Source of the DNA: an uncultured Candidatus Saccharibacteria bacterium
GTDB taxonomy: Bacteria > Patescibacteriota > Minisyncoccia > UBA6257 > GWB1-50-10
DNA length: 49,665 bases
Direction of reading: 5' to 3'
NCBI GenBank assembly: GCA_964489845.1
Contig: CAZAZV010000004.1
Coordinates: 1 to 49,665 of the forward strand
Numbering within the stretch: position 1 is the first letter of the stretch; each line of letters begins with the position of its first letter. Position numbers and translations under genes: made by a program. The notes beneath the pieces are model-generated. The model searched no databases and was not told where the DNA came from. It saw nothing but the letters and a program-made list of their open reading frames with translations. Of this stretch, positions 1-49,665 are shown piece after piece.

Positions 1-14
1 CCCCCAGTGCAATA

Positions 15-48
15 TATCGGTATCGGATACCCATAAAGTTATCCACAG
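15..48. repeat. REP-like palindrome copy (core hairpin plus right DnaA-box arm)
   Basis: TATCGGTATC-G-GATACCCATA-AAGTTATCCACAG; identical over 34 bp to 664-697. Confidence 0.9.
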
Positions 49-636
49 TTATGATTTCGGCTTCACGACGAGCGTCCCCTCAAGCCCGCCGCTCGGGCAG
101 TAGTCCTGGCAGGCCATCTTGAATGTCCCGCTCTGCGGCACGCGGAAACTGGTATGCTTGTCCACGCCGTCAGGGCTCGTGATATACACCCCCATCGCGG
201 GAATGGATAAATCGTACTGTCCGCCTTGCGACGTAAAGGTAAGCTGCACGATGTTCCCCTGCACGACGACGAGCTGGCTCGGGTTATAGCCGTTCCGCGA
301 GGCGATGACATGGTAGATACCGAGCGATTCATCCTTCGTCGGGTCGGTCACGACTTGCACGGTTGTCTGCGCGGGCGTCTCCACCGCGTTCTGCGGCACG
401 CTCGGCGTGTACCCCGTATTCTGCAACTCCTCCTGCGGTGTCATGGTGCTGGTCGCATTCATTCCCGTCTCATTCGTGCCGGAAGGACCGCCTCTCGTCC
501 CGCCGCCCGACACGATGCCGACGACAATAACGGCGACAAGCAACACGGCTCCTCCGATGAGTATGTACAGTTCCTCCTTGCGTGTCTTCTCTGGCACGCC
601 CGTCCGACTCTCCGTCCCCTTCGCCATTCCTTCCAT
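49..636 (-). CDS. membrane-anchored cupredoxin-domain protein
   Basis: N-terminal TM helix, Thr/Pro-rich linker, C-terminal cupredoxin-like motif (F..ACQDYC...G.LVV); start may be 627. Confidence 0.7.
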   Translation of the reverse strand: MEGMAKGTESRTGVPEKTRKEELYILIGGAVLLVAVIVVGIVSGGGTRGGPSGTNETGMNATSTMTPQEELQNTGYTPSVPQNAVETPAQTTVQVVTDPTKDESLGIYHVIASRNGYNPSQLVVVQGNIVQLTFTSQGGQYDLSIPAMGVYITSPDGVDKHTSFRVPQSGTFKMACQDYCPSGGLEGTLVVKPKS

Positions 637-650
637 TATATCATACCCAC

Positions 651-697
651 CTGTGTATAACTTTATCGGTATCGGATACCCATAAAGTTATCCACAG
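651..697. repeat. full-length 47-bp REP-like palindrome (2 mismatches)
   Basis: CTGTGTATAACTTTATCGGTATC-G-GATACCCATAAAGTTATCCACAG, directly abutting the transposase stop codon. Confidence 0.9.
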
Positions 698-1402
698 CTA
701 TTCAAGCCCCATCAATGAATCTCGATTGGTTTCGAAGTCGCTTAACCAATTCATAAACCGGTTCCGATACTCCCTCGGATTGCCAGTCAGCAGATCTCGA
801 AGATATTCTCGCTGTATCACCGATGGAAAATTTTTCCAACCGGCGTAGTCCGGGAAGCTGCTCCACCGGTACGTCTCCAGATATTCAAGAACCTCAGCAG
901 CGTTTTGTAATTTCCCTTCTCGCCATTCGGGATAGACAAGATCGAGCGCGTTCGCGTGCACATAATACAAGACGTACTCGAAATACTCTGGCGTATCAAC
1001 GTGTTTGCACCGATACTTCCCTCGGAAAAGCGCTCCTGAACGCTCGTACCTCTTATTGAAATATCTTGCGTAGCCACCATTAAATTTTCTAATAAACAGC
1101 GGAATTCCGCTGTCAACGCACGGACGGAGCAATAAATGATAGTGATTAGGCATCAGCACAAATGCCAACACCTCGACAAGTAACGTTCTCTTCTTCTCAA
1201 TCTCAATATATGGGTATCCGATACCCATAAAGTTATCCACAGATTTTTTGAAAGAATAAGCGGTATTCGAGACAATGTCTTGATTGTTAAATTCAAAAAG
1301 ATCATGAACGCCGCGCAAGTAGTCACCGTCATTAAGAAAAATCTCGCGCCCATCAACGCCTCTGTTACAGATATGATATATTTCCCCAACGGCCTGTCTC
1401 AT
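698..1402 (-). CDS. Y1/HUH transposase, IS200-like / REP-associated tyrosine transposase (RAYT)
   Basis: YHICNRG, LMPNHYHLL (HUH), YFNKRYERSGALF, YVHAN (catalytic Tyr region) and YRWSS motifs; flanked by palindromes. Confidence 0.9.
   Translation of the reverse strand: MRQAVGEIYHICNRGVDGREIFLNDGDYLRGVHDLFEFNNQDIVSNTAYSFKKSVDNFMGIGYPYIEIEKKRTLLVEVLAFVLMPNHYHLLLRPCVDSGIPLFIRKFNGGYARYFNKRYERSGALFRGKYRCKHVDTPEYFEYVLYYVHANALDLVYPEWREGKLQNAAEVLEYLETYRWSSFPDYAGWKNFPSVIQREYLRDLLTGNPREYRNRFMNWLSDFETNRDSLMGLE
1209..1242. repeat. REP-like palindrome copy inside the transposase CDS
   Basis: TATGGGTATC-C-GATACCCATA-AAGTTATCCACAG; translated as SVDNFMGIGYPY. Confidence 0.9.
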
Positions 1403-1407
1403 GGATT

Positions 1408-2934
1408 TTACTCGTCACAAAATTTCTGTCGAAACTGGAGAGCTTCGGCGAGATGTTCGCGCTCGACACACTCACTCCCTGCCAAATCCGCAATCGTTCG
1501 TGCGACCTTGATAAGCTTGAAGTGCCCTCGTGCGGAAAGGTGGTGCTTCGCGCTCGCAAGCAGCAATAACTCCTCACTGGCGCCCGAGAGCCGAGCGAAT
1601 TCCTTGAGATGCGAGTTTTTCATTTCCGCATTCGTGGCAATGCCCGCGTTGGCAAAGCGCTTGAGTTGAATCGCCCGCGCCTGTTCCACATCGTCGCGAA
1701 GCGCGTGTGTTGTCTGACGCAGTTCGCGGTTCACGCTCTCCTGTAATTTCTCCGGCGCAACCGGCTCCATCCGCACATGCAAATCAATACGGTCAAGTAT
1801 CGGCCCGGACACGCGCTTGCGGTACCGCTCGATTTCCCGCGGCGAGCAGGTACACGCTCGGTGCGGATGGCCGAGATATCCGCATGGGCACGGATTCGCC
1901 GCGGCGATGAGCATAAATTCCGCCGGATACGTAATATGCTCCTTGCTCCGAGAGATGGTGATAGAGCCGTCCTCCATCGGCTGGCGGAGCGCCTCAAGCA
2001 CCGAGCGCGGAAATTCGTTGAACTCGTCCATAAAAAGCACGCCGCGGTGCGCCAAGCTGATCTCCCCCGGCTGCGGCACTGCCCCGCCGCCAATAAGACC
2101 GACGGATGAGATGGTGTGGTGCGGCGCACGGAACTGCCGCTCGCGAATGATGCCGCCATGCGGCGGAATCCGTCCCGATACGGAATAGAGTTTCGTCACC
2201 TCAAGCGCCTCGCGGTCGGTGAGTGGGGGTAAAATGCCCGCACAAGCTCGCGCGAGCATCGTTTTCCCGACACCAGGACTCCCACTCATGATCATATTGT
2301 GTCCGCCAGACGCTGCGATAAGGCACGCTCGTTTTGCCTGCTCCTGACCGGCGATTTCCGACATATCGAATTCAATTTCGAGTTCCTCTCGTGGCTCATC
2401 AATATGCGTCACTGGCTGCACTGTTTCCGAACCCGCGAGGTGTGCAAGGAGCTCCGTCAAGCTCCGTACGCCGTATATATCGATGCCGCTGACAGCTGAT
2501 GCTTCATTCGCCGAAGCCATCGGAACAAAAACTTTTTTGAAGCCCTTCTCTTTCGCGAAAAGTGCGAGAAGCAACGCGCCTCTCCCGTGCCGCAATCCAC
2601 CGTCAAGCGACAGTTCGCCGAAGAAAAGTGCGTCCTGCGGTACGGCATACTTAAAGACCAAGGAGAGGATGCCGATCGCGATGGGCAAATCATACAACGA
2701 GCCCTCCTTCGGCACATCGGCAGGTGCGAGATTCACGGTGATGCGCCGCTGGGGAAATTCGATACCAGAATTCACAATCGCCGTCCGCACGCGATCCTTG
2801 CTTTCCTGGATTGCTTTATCACCGAGTCCGACAATATCAAGACCCGGCAATCCACGCGAAGCTGTGTTGACTTCAACCTCGACGCCAACCGAGTGCAGCC
2901 CCGAAAGTGTTGCCGACAATACATTAACCAACAT
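1408..2934 (-). CDS. comM: YifB/ComM Mg-chelatase-like AAA+ ATPase
   Basis: ITVNLAPAD, GSPGVGKT, FRAPHHT, GEISLAHRGVLFMDE and NPCPCG motifs. Confidence 0.95.
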   Translation of the reverse strand: MLVNVLSATLSGLHSVGVEVEVNTASRGLPGLDIVGLGDKAIQESKDRVRTAIVNSGIEFPQRRITVNLAPADVPKEGSLYDLPIAIGILSLVFKYAVPQDALFFGELSLDGGLRHGRGALLLALFAKEKGFKKVFVPMASANEASAVSGIDIYGVRSLTELLAHLAGSETVQPVTHIDEPREELEIEFDMSEIAGQEQAKRACLIAASGGHNMIMSGSPGVGKTMLARACAGILPPLTDREALEVTKLYSVSGRIPPHGGIIRERQFRAPHHTISSVGLIGGGAVPQPGEISLAHRGVLFMDEFNEFPRSVLEALRQPMEDGSITISRSKEHITYPAEFMLIAAANPCPCGYLGHPHRACTCSPREIERYRKRVSGPILDRIDLHVRMEPVAPEKLQESVNRELRQTTHALRDDVEQARAIQLKRFANAGIATNAEMKNSHLKEFARLSGASEELLLLASAKHHLSARGHFKLIKVARTIADLAGSECVEREHLAEALQFRQKFCDE

Positions 2935-3814
2935 GGTACTTGCCTAACTTTTCAATCACCGCACCCTGCAGCTCCATAAGAGAAAGCAGGGCTCCGACCT
3001 CATCGCTCGATGCGCCGAGCTTGCGACTCAGCTCGTTCACCGTGAGCGCCTCACGTTGCAAAAGCGAGAGGATACTCGCCTCATCGCACACCACTGCTCC
3101 GCTTTCCGCAACGTCATCCTCAAGCACGGTTGCATTGGTATCGGTCCCCGCTTCATCAATGTCAATGCGATAATATTTCAGCACATCTGCCGCGACGGTT
3201 ACCATCTCCGCCTGCTTTGATTTGAGCAGTGCGAGCGTCCCTTCTGCAACGGAGCTTGTAATCTGTCCCGGCACGGCAAAAAGTTTCCGCCCGTATTCGA
3301 GCGCAAGGCGAGCGGTGATAAGCGAGCCGCTCCGCGCACCACCCTCAATAACGAGCACTGCCTGCGAAAGCCCCGCGACAATGCGGTTGCGCGCCGGGTA
3401 CGTCCACACTTCCGCGGGAAACGTTCCCTCATATTCTGACACGACGAGGCCGCCTCGGTTCAGGATCTCGCGATACAAATCTTCCTGGTACGCGGGGTGG
3501 ATCACGTCGATGCCGCACGGCATCACCGCAATCGTCCGTCCGCCGACTTCGACCGCCGCGCGATGCGCCGTCGCATCGATGCCGTACATGAAGCCGGAAA
3601 CGATCGTAATGCCCGCACCAGCGATCTCCCGCACGAGGTCGCGCGCCACCCGTTCCCCGTAGCTCGTCATCCGCCGCGTCCCCACCACACCAAGGCACTG
3701 TAGGAAAAGCTGCTTCCGCCATGCGCCCTTGTAATACAGCGGCGACGGCGGGTCCGGGATGCTCCGCAGGCGCCCCGGATAGCTATCGTCTTCTATATAG
3801 ATACACTTGTCCAT
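2924..3814 (-). CDS. dprA: DNA-protecting protein DprA
   Basis: VVGTR, IVSGFMYGIDATAH, YPARNRIVAGLS and SGSLITA motifs; C-terminal winged helix. Confidence 0.95.
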   Translation of the reverse strand: MDKCIYIEDDSYPGRLRSIPDPPSPLYYKGAWRKQLFLQCLGVVGTRRMTSYGERVARDLVREIAGAGITIVSGFMYGIDATAHRAAVEVGGRTIAVMPCGIDVIHPAYQEDLYREILNRGGLVVSEYEGTFPAEVWTYPARNRIVAGLSQAVLVIEGGARSGSLITARLALEYGRKLFAVPGQITSSVAEGTLALLKSKQAEMVTVAADVLKYYRIDIDEAGTDTNATVLEDDVAESGAVVCDEASILSLLQREALTVNELSRKLGASSDEVGALLSLMELQGAVIEKLGKYHVG

Positions 3815-4707: not shown

Positions 4708-7700
4708 TGAAGTCCGAGTGAAAAATACCAGTCCGACGCACCGGTGTCGTAATAATCCCCGTCGAATGAGCAGAACGTTCCGCATGAACTCAAATTGCCT
4801 CGCATAAGTCCCCTACCCGCATTCCCACCAACATACGCGGTGCCGCCCGTCATAATCGCGTTGTACCACTTGTTGTAGAAATAGGGTTGCCCAGAGCCGC
4901 CTGCAATGTCGAGTACAAACCAGTATGTCTCCCCCGCAGAAAGCGACACGGCGCCCGGAAACGTGAAGGCAATCTCCTGGATTCCCGCAACAGGCAAAAC
5001 TCCGTTCACTTGCGTTTCGTGGGCGGGCGCCGAGAAATCCGGTTTCCCCGCGCCATTATCCGGATACACCGACAACCTGATGCTCTCCGCATTCCCGTAC
5101 GCGCCGTTCGATTTCACCTTCACGTTCATAAAATTGAATGAGAGGTCCTGAGTGGGCATGATATTCTGGAAACTTGCCTCGTCCGGCTCAGTCAAAGCGT
5201 TTGACGTGACAAATCCCCACGCACTGCTCCATCCATTCTCGGCATCCTGGGCAATGTGCACCGTCGCTGACGGGTACGACCACGATGTGTACACGGACTC
5301 GGATATATTCCCGAAATCATCAACCGCACGCATGCCGATGATGAAACTGTCACCACTTCCCACTTGCCTATCGTACGCGAGCCGCGCCGCATCGGTACCG
5401 CTGACGCGCTGCCACAGCGTTTCGTCAAAGCCCGCAGGAGGCGAGAAATTGATGTCATACGAAATGACACCGTCAAGTGTGTCGGGGTCAATGGCGCGCT
5501 GCCAGTATACGGTGAGCTTTGAGAGCGCGTGGTCAAGCGTCGTCGATGCCATGCCCATCACTGGCGCAAACTTGTTCGCGCCGCTCATTTGGAAATGATG
5601 TTTCGTCTTGTCGACAGCAACGAGCTTAAGTTTCTGCTCTCCGCCGCCAGAACCATAAAATGAGTAGAATGACGCAGTGAGATAATCCGACGGTGAGAGT
5701 GTGAGTTCGCTCGTCGAACTCGCGCTCTCGATAAGAACGTGTTTGTCTTCCAATTGCGCAAAAGAAATACCCTGCTGTACGAGTCCTCCCCCCATCACGT
5801 CGCACAAACTCGCGGCATCGGGGAAGATGACGGCACGGAGCGGAGTATCGGAACCACTACACTGCTTGTAACGAAGGTTGAGGACACCGTTTGTGTCCGC
5901 TGGCTCGAATTTGCCCGATGTCGTGAGCAGGTTGTCCTCCACCGGCTCGCGGTCAAGCGAGAAAATAACGCCTTTCCACGTCGCGTTCGCTCCACCTTGA
6001 TACACGTCGGGAATAAAGGGATATGCACCATAATACGCTTCGACGAGATACTTCGTCCCGCCTGCGCGGTTATCCGGGTAGAGATACACTTCGTCCAAGA
6101 AACTCGGCGCGGCGATCGTAGAACTTGCTATGGCCGAGCCAAGACCGTCCTTATCAAATGCCTGGAATTTGAGTTGATAATTTCTCCCAACCTCGAGCAG
6201 TTTTTGAGAGAAAGCGAGCGAACTGGAGCTGTAAAACACATCGCCGTTCACCGCATCGGTCACCGTATAGATAAGGCCGTTCTTGTCCCCCATTGCGTCG
6301 ACATATGGGCTCCAACTCCCAGAGAGTGTCACCGACGAGGGGGTGTAACTGAATGTTGCGGAACTCCCTGATGGCCTCGGCACGTCCCGCGGCTCGAGCA
6401 TGCTGCTCCGGTTCTGCGCTCGCGGCGCGACGTTTTCATAAAATAATGCATCGGCGCAGCCGTTCCCGTGAAAATTCCACATGCCCGTTGGCTCATGACA
6501 CAATGAGCCGTCGTACGCGTATCGCTCCAAACTGTTCCCCCGCGCGACCGATGCGTATGATACCGCATCGACAATCTCGAGATTCGCATTGACGAGAAGA
6601 AGTGCGTCGTCGGCATAGGAAAGATGCGCGGAGCCGGAGTACGCCGCGTCAGCGCTCACTGTACTCGACGCGGCGTACTCGGGGCTGCCGACAAGATAGA
6701 ATCCGAGCGACGGAATCGTGCTCGTCGGAAACGCTTGAAGCAAAACCTCACTTGACGTTGCGCTCATCCCGCGTCGGAGCGACCAGCCGGCAAGATTCAC
6801 CGCGTCGGCAGTCGGGTTGTACAACTTCACCCATTCGACATCCGACGCTCCCGTCCCCGCCCCAGGGAAAATCTCACCAATGAGCGCGGAGGTTGAGGTG
6901 CTGTAGGTAAAGTTACCATTGCTCGCGTCGTCGTTCCCGCCAGAATCAGTGCCCGTTGTCGTGCTGGTATCGCTATCGGTTTGTGGAGCAGCGCCTCCGC
7001 CTCCACCCCATCCGCCACCGCCTCCGCTCGACGGCTTCACGTATCCTTGCGAGTTCGCCGCGCGAGGCGTCCCGAGCGGGGCATAGCTTGTCTGCCACTG
7101 CAAGCTCGCCGTGCGTTCCATCGTGCGTTTCGTGTCGTTATCCCCCGCGGGCCACGCGGGGTTTGCAATCACTGCATCAAGGAACACGCATACGTTCGTG
7201 AAGAGGTGCAATCCTTCATTGCTATTCCCGATTGCGCCGGTGTACACGACATCGGCCGCAATACCCGGCACACTCTCATCATCGGTGCGTTCGAGAAGCA
7301 CGTACCCGCCCGCGGGAACGGTAATCTTCCCGAGCGTTACGTGGATCTTCCCACCCCCATCAATAAGCTGGTACCCTTCCAGATTCAGCGGAACGTTCCT
7401 GACGTTTTTCAGTTCCACCCACTCGTTCTGCGAACCCGCAAGTGTCCCCATCCACGCAACCTCGTTAATAACGAGCGGCTCGTATGTTGGGTTCCCGCTT
7501 TGCCCATACGAGCATGTTTTGACAATCGGAGCGGAAGCGGTACTACTGGTTGATGTCTGCTGCTTCGCTTTTGTTGCAGTCGCCACCGAAGAAACCGGTG
7601 ACTGTTTTGTGGTGTCAGTAGTGCTGGTTGTATTCACCACACCTCCTGGCGCAGTTATTGTGGCAATATCCGTGACAAGATATTCGACGCCAGCGCTTTG

Positions 7701-9727: not shown

Positions 9728-9774
9728 CTGTGGATAACTTTATCGGTATCGGATACCGATAAAGTTATCCACAG
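9728..9774. repeat. perfect 47-bp REP-like palindrome with two inverted DnaA boxes
   Basis: CTGTGGATAACTTTATCGGTATC-G-GATACCGATAAAGTTATCCACAG; 23-bp perfect arms. Confidence 0.95.
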
Positions 9775-10497: not shown

Positions 10498-10863
10498 TCA
10501 AGTAAACAGGTCGTCGTAGCGCGTAATGCGGAGCGCGTCCCATCCGTTCGGTGCGAACACGACGCAGACCGCATTGATGTGGTAGAGGCCGGTGTAGTGC
10601 ACATGCACCGCATACGCTGCGGCAGCGCGCGCAAGGCGGCGGCGCTTGTCGGCGGTAAGCGCCTCTTCCGGGATGCCGACATCATCGACACCCCGGCTCT
10701 TCACCTCGACAAAGACGAGTTCTTTCCGTTTGTTCCGACATACGATATCGAGCTCGCTCCACTTCGTGCGGAGATTGCGCTCGAGCACCCGAAAACCCTC
10801 CCGTTTCAGAAATGCGCACGCCACGTCCTCTCCCCGCTTCCCGATAACGTTATGGAACGCCAT
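10498..10863 (-). CDS. yraN: YraN family endonuclease-like protein
   Basis: GKRGED.A, ERN, ELDIV and LVFVEVKSR motifs. Confidence 0.9.
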   Translation of the reverse strand: MAFHNVIGKRGEDVACAFLKREGFRVLERNLRTKWSELDIVCRNKRKELVFVEVKSRGVDDVGIPEEALTADKRRRLARAAAAYAVHVHYTGLYHINAVCVVFAPNGWDALRITRYDDLFT

Positions 10864-28805: not shown

Positions 28806-28806
28806 A

Positions 28807-28841
28807 TTATGGGTGTCGGATACCCATAAAGTTATCCACAG
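28807..28841. repeat. REP-like palindrome copy between convergent genes
   Basis: TTATGGGTGTC-G-GATACCCATAAAGTTATCCACAG. Confidence 0.9.
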
Positions 28842-33337: not shown

Positions 33338-33353
33338 CTGTGGATAACTTTAT
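33338..33353. repeat. isolated left arm of the REP-like palindrome
   Basis: CTGTGGATAACTTTAT, identical to the first 16 nt of the 9728 copy. Confidence 0.75.
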
Positions 33354-39930: not shown

Positions 39931-39983
39931 AATTATCTCGAGTGCGTTTTATCTTATTTCTACCCCATTTCTCAGACTTTTAG

Positions 39984-39992
39984 TTATCCACA
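39984..39992 (+). promoter_or_regulatory. DnaA box / REP arm fragment
   Basis: TTATCCACA within AGTTATCCACAG. Confidence 0.6.
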
Positions 39993-40032
39993 GGAAACTT
40001 GCTTGACATCGTCCTGGCTGTTACAATGATTA

Positions 40033-43529: not shown

Positions 43530-43539
43530 CTGTGGATAA
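43530..43539 (-). promoter_or_regulatory. DnaA box / REP arm fragment
   Basis: CTGTGGATAA between the rarA stop and the lexA promoter. Confidence 0.6.
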
Positions 43540-43542
43540 TTT

Positions 43543-49540: not shown

Positions 49541-49625
49541 AGACAACCTCCTGTAAGAGAACTGGGGTAGATACAACCACAAGAACGTCACGGTGTCAAT
49601 GATGCCATTCCTCAAGCAATGAGGA

Positions 49626-49665
49626 AAGACAAAAGCGTCCCTGCATGCAGGGACGCTTTTGTCTT
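49626..49665. terminator. perfect 40-bp palindrome (bidirectional terminator-like)
   Basis: AAGACAAAAGCGTCCCTGCA|TGCAGGGACGCTTTTGTCTT. Confidence 0.6.

Follow-up and report, generated by a model that had tools for sequence, protein, structure and literature searches.

A RAYT-like HUH enzyme and a dispersed palindrome family in a 0.58-Mb Patescibacteria genome: a probable REP/RAYT-type system

Large proteobacterial, cyanobacterial and Bacteroidetes genomes are the described setting of repetitive extragenic palindromic (REP) sequences and REP-associated tyrosine transposases (RAYTs), and Patescibacteria are a genome class regarded as nearly repeat-free. Here, a RAYT-like gene and a dispersed palindromic repeat are analysed in a contig of 49,665 nucleotides (nt) from an uncultured Candidatus Saccharibacteria bacterium (CAZAZV010000004.1, the window from here on). 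The gene occupies positions 698-1402 of the minus strand, and the repeat, called family A, lies beside it, inside it and farther off. In the described systems, according to those sections of Quentin et al. 2018 (PMC6006769) that treat them, each tnpA-REP gene has its own REP family, with several per genome, and REPs may also lie in frame. Among these, the "double-foot" REPs have GT[AG]G and C[TC]AC at their opposite ends, and tnpA-REP genes are reported mainly from large genomes (section 10 of that paper). The same sections describe how TnpA-REP and the TnpA of IS200/IS605 bind a hairpin on single-stranded DNA (ssDNA), cut beside it and transfer it.

Judged from sequence and comparison, it is quite likely that the gene at 698-1402 and family A form a REP/RAYT-type system, that is, an enzyme with its probable cognate substrate. 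In-frame REPs inside RAYT genes are already known, for another subclass and another site (PMC6006769, in the parts on TnpA-REP subclasses). Here a probable REP/RAYT-type pair is seen in an undescribed enzyme group, in a tiny Patescibacteria genome. No description of REP/RAYT in Patescibacteria or the candidate phyla radiation (CPR) was found in the literature searched, which covered few subscription journals.

Family A, the enzyme gene and their relatives

The window is the entire contig C4 of a genome in 21 contigs (G000; 578,579 bp, 97.7% complete, 56% G+C), and its proteins have their nearest named relatives in metagenome-assembled genomes of Patescibacteria/Parcubacteria. An earlier reading of the letters alone (the sequence-only reading) had pointed to a palindrome family around the enzyme gene, and a search bears out both its sequence and its coordinates. 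With up to three mismatches, the 30-mer GGTATCSGATACCCATAAAGTTATCCACAG has seven matches in the window (19-48, 651-680 on the minus strand, 668-697, 1213-1242, 9728-9757 on the minus strand, 9745-9774 and 28812-28841), against 0.00 expected from 100 shuffles. The 13-nt arm with at most one mismatch has ten, against 0.01 expected, and adds 33338-33350 (minus), 39981-39993 (plus) and 43530-43542 (minus). Genome-wide there are 18 core matches, which amount to 17 distinct units on 10 contigs because the copies at the starts of C4 and C11 are one copy on overlapping contig ends (47 nt, window 1-47, across the unit). At the other end of the window, positions 49611-49665 share 55 nt, which span a terminator-like hairpin, with the left end of contig C1; thus, both assembly breaks of this contig fall at hairpins.

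Aligning the 13 single-tail units gives a unit of 38 nt, AAAT / TATGGGTATC-S-GATACCCATA / AAGTTATCCACAG, with sharp borders, as information content is at background outside positions -4 to +33. The 17 units are near-identical, with few substitutions other than at the S positions. In 13 of them the unit is asymmetric, consisting of the hairpin and one 13-nt tail, an aspect that the sequence-only reading had not noted; the other four are symmetrical, with two tails and 47 nt. The hairpin has a C or a G at its centre in every unit, never A or T; read with respect to the tail, eight units have G there and five have C, as would be expected if single-tail units arise from the symmetrical form by losing either tail. 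When folded as ssDNA, the symmetrical form reaches -23.1 kcal/mol (z -11) and the single-tail units -6.3 to -6.8 kcal/mol. Among the 12-mer families of this genome, none is more over-represented than family A and a second palindrome, GAAGTC-S-GACTTC. Three of its units lie within 15-1242, which has a Poisson probability of about 8e-6 if 17 units are scattered randomly over 578,579 bp, so the clustering at the transposase gene noted in the sequence-only reading withstands a count. The abutment of units to stop codons was likewise recovered: the tails that end at 48, 697 and 28841 are followed by minus-strand stop codons starting at 49, 698 and 28843.

The open reading frame (ORF) at 698-1402 (minus strand) encodes a RAYT-like Y1 HUH enzyme of 234 amino acids (aa). 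Its HUH motif is H87-Y-H89 (nt 1136-1144), and Tyr146/Tyr147 (nt 962-967) lie within YYVHANAL. The protein matches Pfam Y1_Tnp (PF01797) at 34.6 bits, where the cut-off is 23, as do all 44 aligned members of its clade, and H87, H89, Y147 and N151 are invariant across these 44 homologs. With a profile made from the clade alignment, the best match among solved structures is 4ER8, the E. coli TnpA-REP (E 5.9e-5), followed by ISDra2 TnpA. Clade proteins are about 230 aa long and keep a YRWSS extension with conserved serines. One family-A unit (1209-1242, minus strand; tail 1230-1242, hairpin 1209-1229) is an exact match to the 30-mer and lies in frame within this ORF, a position that had also gone unremarked before. 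It encodes roughly S-V-D-N-F-M-G-I-G-Y-P-Y (residues ~54-66), 66 nt upstream of the HUH motif. The unit falls in a stretch of ~33 aa (residues ~40-72) which is absent from long non-Patescibacterial relatives in hhalign comparisons and which, by its sequence, would lie between the first helix and the HUH strand. Its place in this clade-specific stretch would explain why the in-frame copy is tolerated. Directly upstream of the start codon, in the last codons of comM, there is a promoter-like TCGACA-16 nt-TAAAAT (1405-1432, minus strand), and the enzyme gene may have its own promoter.

The association of such genes with palindromes extends across the clade. A survey gathered 85 loci (three from G000, 11 from 40 relatives and 71 from genome_contigs), which gave 81 genes, as an HUH motif could not be recognised at five loci and one locus contained two genes. 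Palindromes were counted from nine matched bp upwards, a threshold that scores decayed copies as absent (for instance, at locus L015). Measured from the HUH codons, palindromes are densest at -420 to -270 nt, before the start; at -90 to -31, inside the gene; and at +420 to +510, after the stop, over a background of 0-3 per 30-nt bin. Both flanks bear palindromes in 34 of the 81 genes, and in 33 of these 34 the 5' and 3' flanks share a 9-mer. An internal palindrome occurs at one fixed site before the HUH motif in 27 of 81 genes and shares a 9-mer with its own flank in 24 of the 27; its centre falls in codon phase 0, 1 and 2 in 18, 6 and 3 cases, respectively. A second internal site, at +223 to +262 nt, after the Y motif, is occupied in five genes. 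The palindrome sequences themselves are wholly different from genome to genome.

Within the genus, family A is confined to a single genome while the locus persists. There are 20 family-A half-sites in G000 and none in any of the 40 relatives, and no exact match in the two public collections, genome_contigs and metagenome_contigs. In G002, of the same genus, the comM-RAYT-cupredoxin locus is syntenic, its proteins being 82.5%, 60% and 68% identical to those of G000. The repeat there is another one, GATTGGTTTCGGGAATC, with 76 half-sites, mostly paired, and no match in G000. In G001, also of the genus, comM and the cupredoxin gene are direct neighbours, the enzyme gene being absent from this place. 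A palindrome ACAAGGTTTCGTAAACCTTGT is present in 14 copies in this genome, including both sides of the cupredoxin gene, and its single homolog of the enzyme, elsewhere in the genome, carries yet another palindrome. Three species of one genus thus have three different repeat families at the comM-cupredoxin locus, one of them without an enzyme gene. The spacer after frr, which holds a family-A unit in G000, measures 4 nt in G002 and 2 nt in G001, and the mreB-holB spacer is 1 nt in G002 and consists of AAAT, hairpin and tail in G000. From the latter comparison, AAAT is part of the unit; and as these spacers of 1-4 nt are empty in same-genus relatives, the two units are lineage-specific insertions.

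The proposal that family A is the cognate substrate family of the enzyme is supported mainly by comparison, through the 9-mers shared between flanks and gene interior across the clade, the restriction of the family to one genome and the empty spacers in relatives. The enzyme would then be an ssDNA nuclease and transferase of the Y1 HUH class, with His87-x-His89 as its metal site and Tyr147 as its nucleophile, and its substrate would most likely be the 38-nt unit. Where the DNA becomes single-stranded, for instance at a replication fork, a hairpin of 10-11 bp could form, which the enzyme would bind, cut beside and rejoin elsewhere. Units would pile up in the few places where this very compact genome tolerates them: immediately behind stop codons, in the gaps of convergent gene pairs, next to the enzyme gene and within one permissive loop of the enzyme itself. 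By analogy with IS200/IS605 TnpA and E. coli TnpA-REP, we infer that this enzyme, and not another, moves the units, and likewise where it would cut and that it would work on single strands.

Individual units, paralogs and neighbouring genes

Units in the window differ in form. The first (15-48, plus strand; hairpin 15-35, tail 36-48) has a single tail, sits 0 nt after the stop of a cupredoxin-like gene and lies at the contig end. Next comes a symmetrical, "double-foot" unit of tail, hairpin and tail, to which no strand is assigned (651-697); it starts 0 nt after the RAYT stop, its left tail CTGTGTATAACTT has one change from the consensus tail, and its ssDNA fold is -17.2 kcal/mol (z -7.9). Another symmetrical unit (9728-9774, likewise without strand), with both tails perfect and a C-G stem variant, lies between a terminator-like hairpin and the next gene and folds at -23.1 kcal/mol (z -11.2), which 0 of 200 shuffles equalled. 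The single-tail unit at 28806-28841 (plus strand) has a G-T wobble in its stem and is placed between two convergent genes. Solitary tails are found as well: a 13/13 match at 33338-33350 (minus strand), with only ATA remaining of the hairpin beside it; a tail-like 13-mer matching at 12/13 at 39981-39993 (plus strand), with TTGACA 9 nt further on; and a second 12/13 case, an arm match, at 43530-43542 (minus strand).

The gene bracketed by the units at 15-48 and 651-697 (49-636, minus strand) encodes a cupredoxin-like membrane protein of 195 aa, with a weak match to Pfam Cupredoxin_1 that stays below the cut-off (E 6.6e-4). It is a neighbour and no part of the enzyme. Elsewhere in the genome, a methyltransferase-like ORF (C8:6004-6705, minus strand; Pfam MTS, E 9.5e-14) extends across a family-A unit at 6059-6092, about 25 codons before its stop, and the unit may have replaced the native 3' end. 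When other ORFs were checked for in-frame copies, this was the only one that plausibly runs through one, near its 3' end.

Three further Y1 homolog matches are present in the genome, on C6, on C15 and as a fragment at C5:9-95, so that there are three full-length paralogs in all and a remnant. The C15 gene has a palindrome, TATGTTAAACATT-S-AATGTTTAACATA, upstream, downstream and within the ORF, and the C6 gene has another, GATTGAGGC...GCCTCA, within the ORF and upstream, the latter being its only flank copy. The remnant (C5:9-95, minus strand), at a contig end, is RAYT-like and 5'-truncated, with 76% identity to residues 70-98. It stops precisely where the internal palindrome would stand, directly next to the second dispersed palindrome, GAAGTC-S-GACTTC (family B), an arrangement that looks like a deletion between repeat copies. 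Family B has 30 matches at up to one mismatch, in two subtypes, one of which forms REPIN-like doublets (GGAAGTCSGACTTCC-13 nt-GGAAGTCSGACTTCC). Its sites include C5:96-170, C6:6290-6330, C9:2011-2162 and 6747, C12:7780-7820, C14:16886, C16:7096-7241 and 10764-10804, and C19:2886-2934 and 3464-3504.

Contrary observations and other explanations

Several observations weigh against a REP/RAYT-type pair. The first concerns the class of the enzyme. The sequence-only reading had called it a RAYT-like HUH transposase, and the Y1 HUH assignment holds by the domain match, the invariant catalytic residues and the structural match to 4ER8; nevertheless, the protein scores 30.3 bits with the RAYT family model of NCBIfam (REP_Tyr_transpos, NF047646), whose curated cut-off is 80, and the two paralogs reach 31.7 and 39.2 bits. 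In addition, its Y motif is Y147-V-H-A-N151-A, thus Y-x-x-x-N-A and not N-P; P152 is found in at least 90% of clade members and is Ala in this protein, and the N is invariant in the clade. The gene has a copy in its 3' flank (651-697) and one inside (1209-1242) and lacks one in its 5' flank, which can be attributed to comM ending 5 nt before the enzyme start. On contig C4, which holds five of the 17 units (P=0.012), there is no enrichment once the gene's own three are set aside (two of 14, P=0.34).

The covariation of the hairpin core also fell short of what had been claimed for it. All the base-pair states listed in the sequence-only reading are present, with 11 G-C, two C-G and four mixed stems among the 17 units; yet this is no more than chance would give, since four or fewer mixed units arise in 17.8% of 100,000 random re-pairings of the arms (P=0.18). 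It is across genomes that covariation takes its strong form, as the sequences differ there while position and palindromy are kept. Moreover, when the presence of the internal palindrome is placed on a quick tree of 44 proteins, it requires 13 changes against 14.8 for shuffled labels, which is no better than random. With so scattered a distribution, an ancient internal copy and one re-inserted repeatedly are indistinguishable.

The relatives provide two further contrary points. Counting the motif in them, as had been suggested, gives 0 of 40 for family A; still, G001 keeps its different, 14-copy family at the locus without an orthologous gene, which comes near to the refuting case named at the time, a repeat equally abundant in relatives that lack the transposase. 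A repeat can therefore be present there without a strict need for the ortholog, although recent loss of the gene fits as well. Furthermore, the spacer orthologous to that of the unit at 28806-28841, between the convergent genes, holds a doublet of G002's own repeat in G002, which fits insertion hot spots and equally fits replacement in situ.

One rival explanation is that the units are relics, the enzyme being domesticated or inactive in transposition and the repeats persisting as harmless or co-opted sequences. RAYTs are typically single-copy, vertically inherited genes, as far as published abstracts state; the comM-RAYT linkage is kept in G002 and in G012, of another genus; the copy number, at 17 units, is low; and the repeat family of G001 outlives the gene. 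In contrast, the near-identity of the 17 units, their absence from two genomes of the same genus and the two insertion sites that are empty there indicate a spread that is recent on the scale of species divergence, and the catalytic residues of the enzyme are intact. Relics are, in our judgement, a rather unlikely account of family A.

A different explanation is that the units are host regulatory sites spread by selection, with the tail as a DnaA box or operator and the hairpin as a terminator or mRNA stabiliser, so that their closeness to the gene would be incidental. Most units do sit after the 3' ends of genes, tail first, with an A/T-rich run behind the hairpin, and the tail contains TTATCCACA, a perfect DnaA box. 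This sequence occurs 34 times in the genome against 2.8 expected (about 12-fold), 19 of them in tail context. All three species of the genus share, upstream of their cupredoxin gene, a conserved 13-mer variant that fits TTATNCACA. The tail 13-mer also recurs 35 times in G012, where it is reversed relative to that genome's own hairpin, as a double-strand binding site could be. By contrast, 26 of these 35 read TTATCCCCA, which is off the DnaA consensus, a simple terminator scan of window positions 1-1500 flagged no family-A unit, and no oriC-like cluster of DnaA boxes was found in the G000 contigs, the best being three sites with up to one mismatch within 150 bp on C5; around dnaA, on C10, there are three weak sites. 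Regulatory selection would also leave unexplained the sharp 38-nt borders, the copy within a coding sequence, the insertions into spacers of 1-4 nt, the clade-wide sharing of 9-mers by palindromes that differ between genomes, and the absence of family A from same-genus genomes. It has quite a slim chance of being right. As for miniature elements moved by another enzyme, a Y1 paralog or an unrelated transposase, the other homologs in the genome would offer candidates, but the C6 and C15 palindromes are confined to their own loci, the C5 remnant abuts family B and family A lies beside and inside the gene at 698-1402 alone, which makes this proposal highly improbable.

The DnaA box deserves attention in its own right. 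There is a small chance, judging from the perfect boxes in tails, the variant kept in three species and the reversed 13-mer of another genus, that the 13-nt tail is a working high-affinity DnaA box multiplied by the repeat family. If so, the repeat might recruit DnaA to open the duplex for hairpin formation, or its spread might alter DnaA titration in a genome of 0.58 Mb. A selfish repeat would then be linked to replication control, and the DnaA_C-like domains of related Y1 proteins would gain a counterpart on the DNA side. In the clade itself no such domain was detected, as Bac_DnaA_C matches 0 of 44 members at E <=1 and the hhalign match ends at residue 210.

Other features of these boxes are worth recording. 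The 14-15 TTATCCACA sites outside tails are still about 5-fold above expectation, several of them in the extended context GTTATCCACAG. Upstream of the extended -10 promoter-like TGATATAAT of the cupredoxin gene, CTGTG(T/C)ATAACTT is found at 651-663 in the window, at ~721-735 of locus L121 in G001 and at ~1401-1415 of locus L013 in G002, and, being common to three species, it is older than the present family-A hairpin. Beside this conserved 13-mer, G002 keeps TTTATCG, like the remnant of half a family-A unit. At locus L114 of G012 (C212:81840-82000), one tail 13-mer is followed by two more TTATCCACA boxes within 45 nt, an oriC-like DnaA-box cluster.

Comparison with described systems

In this case a genome of 0.58 Mb holds three full-length paralogs and a remnant of such an enzyme, with two dispersed hairpin families. 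Within one genus, the repeats turn over completely between species while the locus stays, and this offers a natural series (one species with the gene and repeat A, one with the gene and repeat B, and one that has lost the gene and keeps an orphan repeat C) in which the joint change of specificity of hairpin and enzyme could be studied. It also bears on the question of why a target copy is kept within the reading frame of the enzyme. For the annotation of CPR genomes, such units explain why contigs break, genes end oddly and "extra" peptides turn up.

The closest described systems are the REPtrons of class 2, such as E. coli YafM with 4ER8 and those of Pseudomonas and Stenotrophomonas, as characterised in the relevant parts of PMC6006769. 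As there, the enzyme is of the Y1 HUH class, with 4ER8 its best solved match; the gene adjoins a short hairpin repeat dispersed between genes, with one family per gene and several pairs per genome; and the repeats are species-specific, the locus being vertically inherited. Similarly to the double-foot REPs in that account, the symmetrical family-A unit has GTGG at its 5' end and CCAC at its 3' end.

The differences from REPtrons are also several. In the REPs covered by those parts of PMC6006769, GT[AG]G (or CGTC) stands at the 5' foot of the hairpin; in family A, the GTGG of the tail CTGTGGATAACTT is 2 nt from the end of a 22-bp hairpin in symmetrical units and 7 nt from the foot of a 10-bp hairpin in the 13 single-tail units. 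Family A, with only 17 copies, has a stem that is perfectly palindromic and A/T-rich around a single central base. Its host genome is about ten times smaller than the genomes that the same source describes as enriched for these genes. Finally, the enzyme is below the NCBIfam RAYT cut-off, and its clade has the extra ~33 aa before the HUH strand.

Two subclasses of TnpA-REP, as far as the corresponding parts of PMC6006769 define them, share particular traits with the clade. Like subclass 2.4, it has its own REP copy in frame, in an unbroken ORF and in a variable peripheral region. Unlike it, the clade has its main site before the HUH motif (27 of 81) and a second one after the Y motif (five genes), and keeps YRWSS, whereas subclass 2.4 is described as lacking the serine-containing extension of the core. 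Subclass 2.1, or TIRYT, with a DnaA_C-like C-terminal domain, is approached through the nearest non-Patescibacterial relatives fetched, which match with 100% profile-profile probability over the core and the W-S-S extension; one long relative among them carries Pfam Bac_DnaA_C. These relatives are 285-408 aa long and showed no flanking palindromes in the palindrome scan, whereas the clade proteins have ~230 aa and lack Bac_DnaA_C, and yet family A bears a DnaA-box-like tail. With the IS200/IS605 TnpA (ISDra2, 2XM3, and IS608) the enzyme shares the class of catalytic fold and presumably the recognition of a single-stranded hairpin. Unlike those elements, the gene is neither multi-copy nor bounded by insertion-sequence ends, and the item that is repeated is the 38-nt unit rather than the gene.

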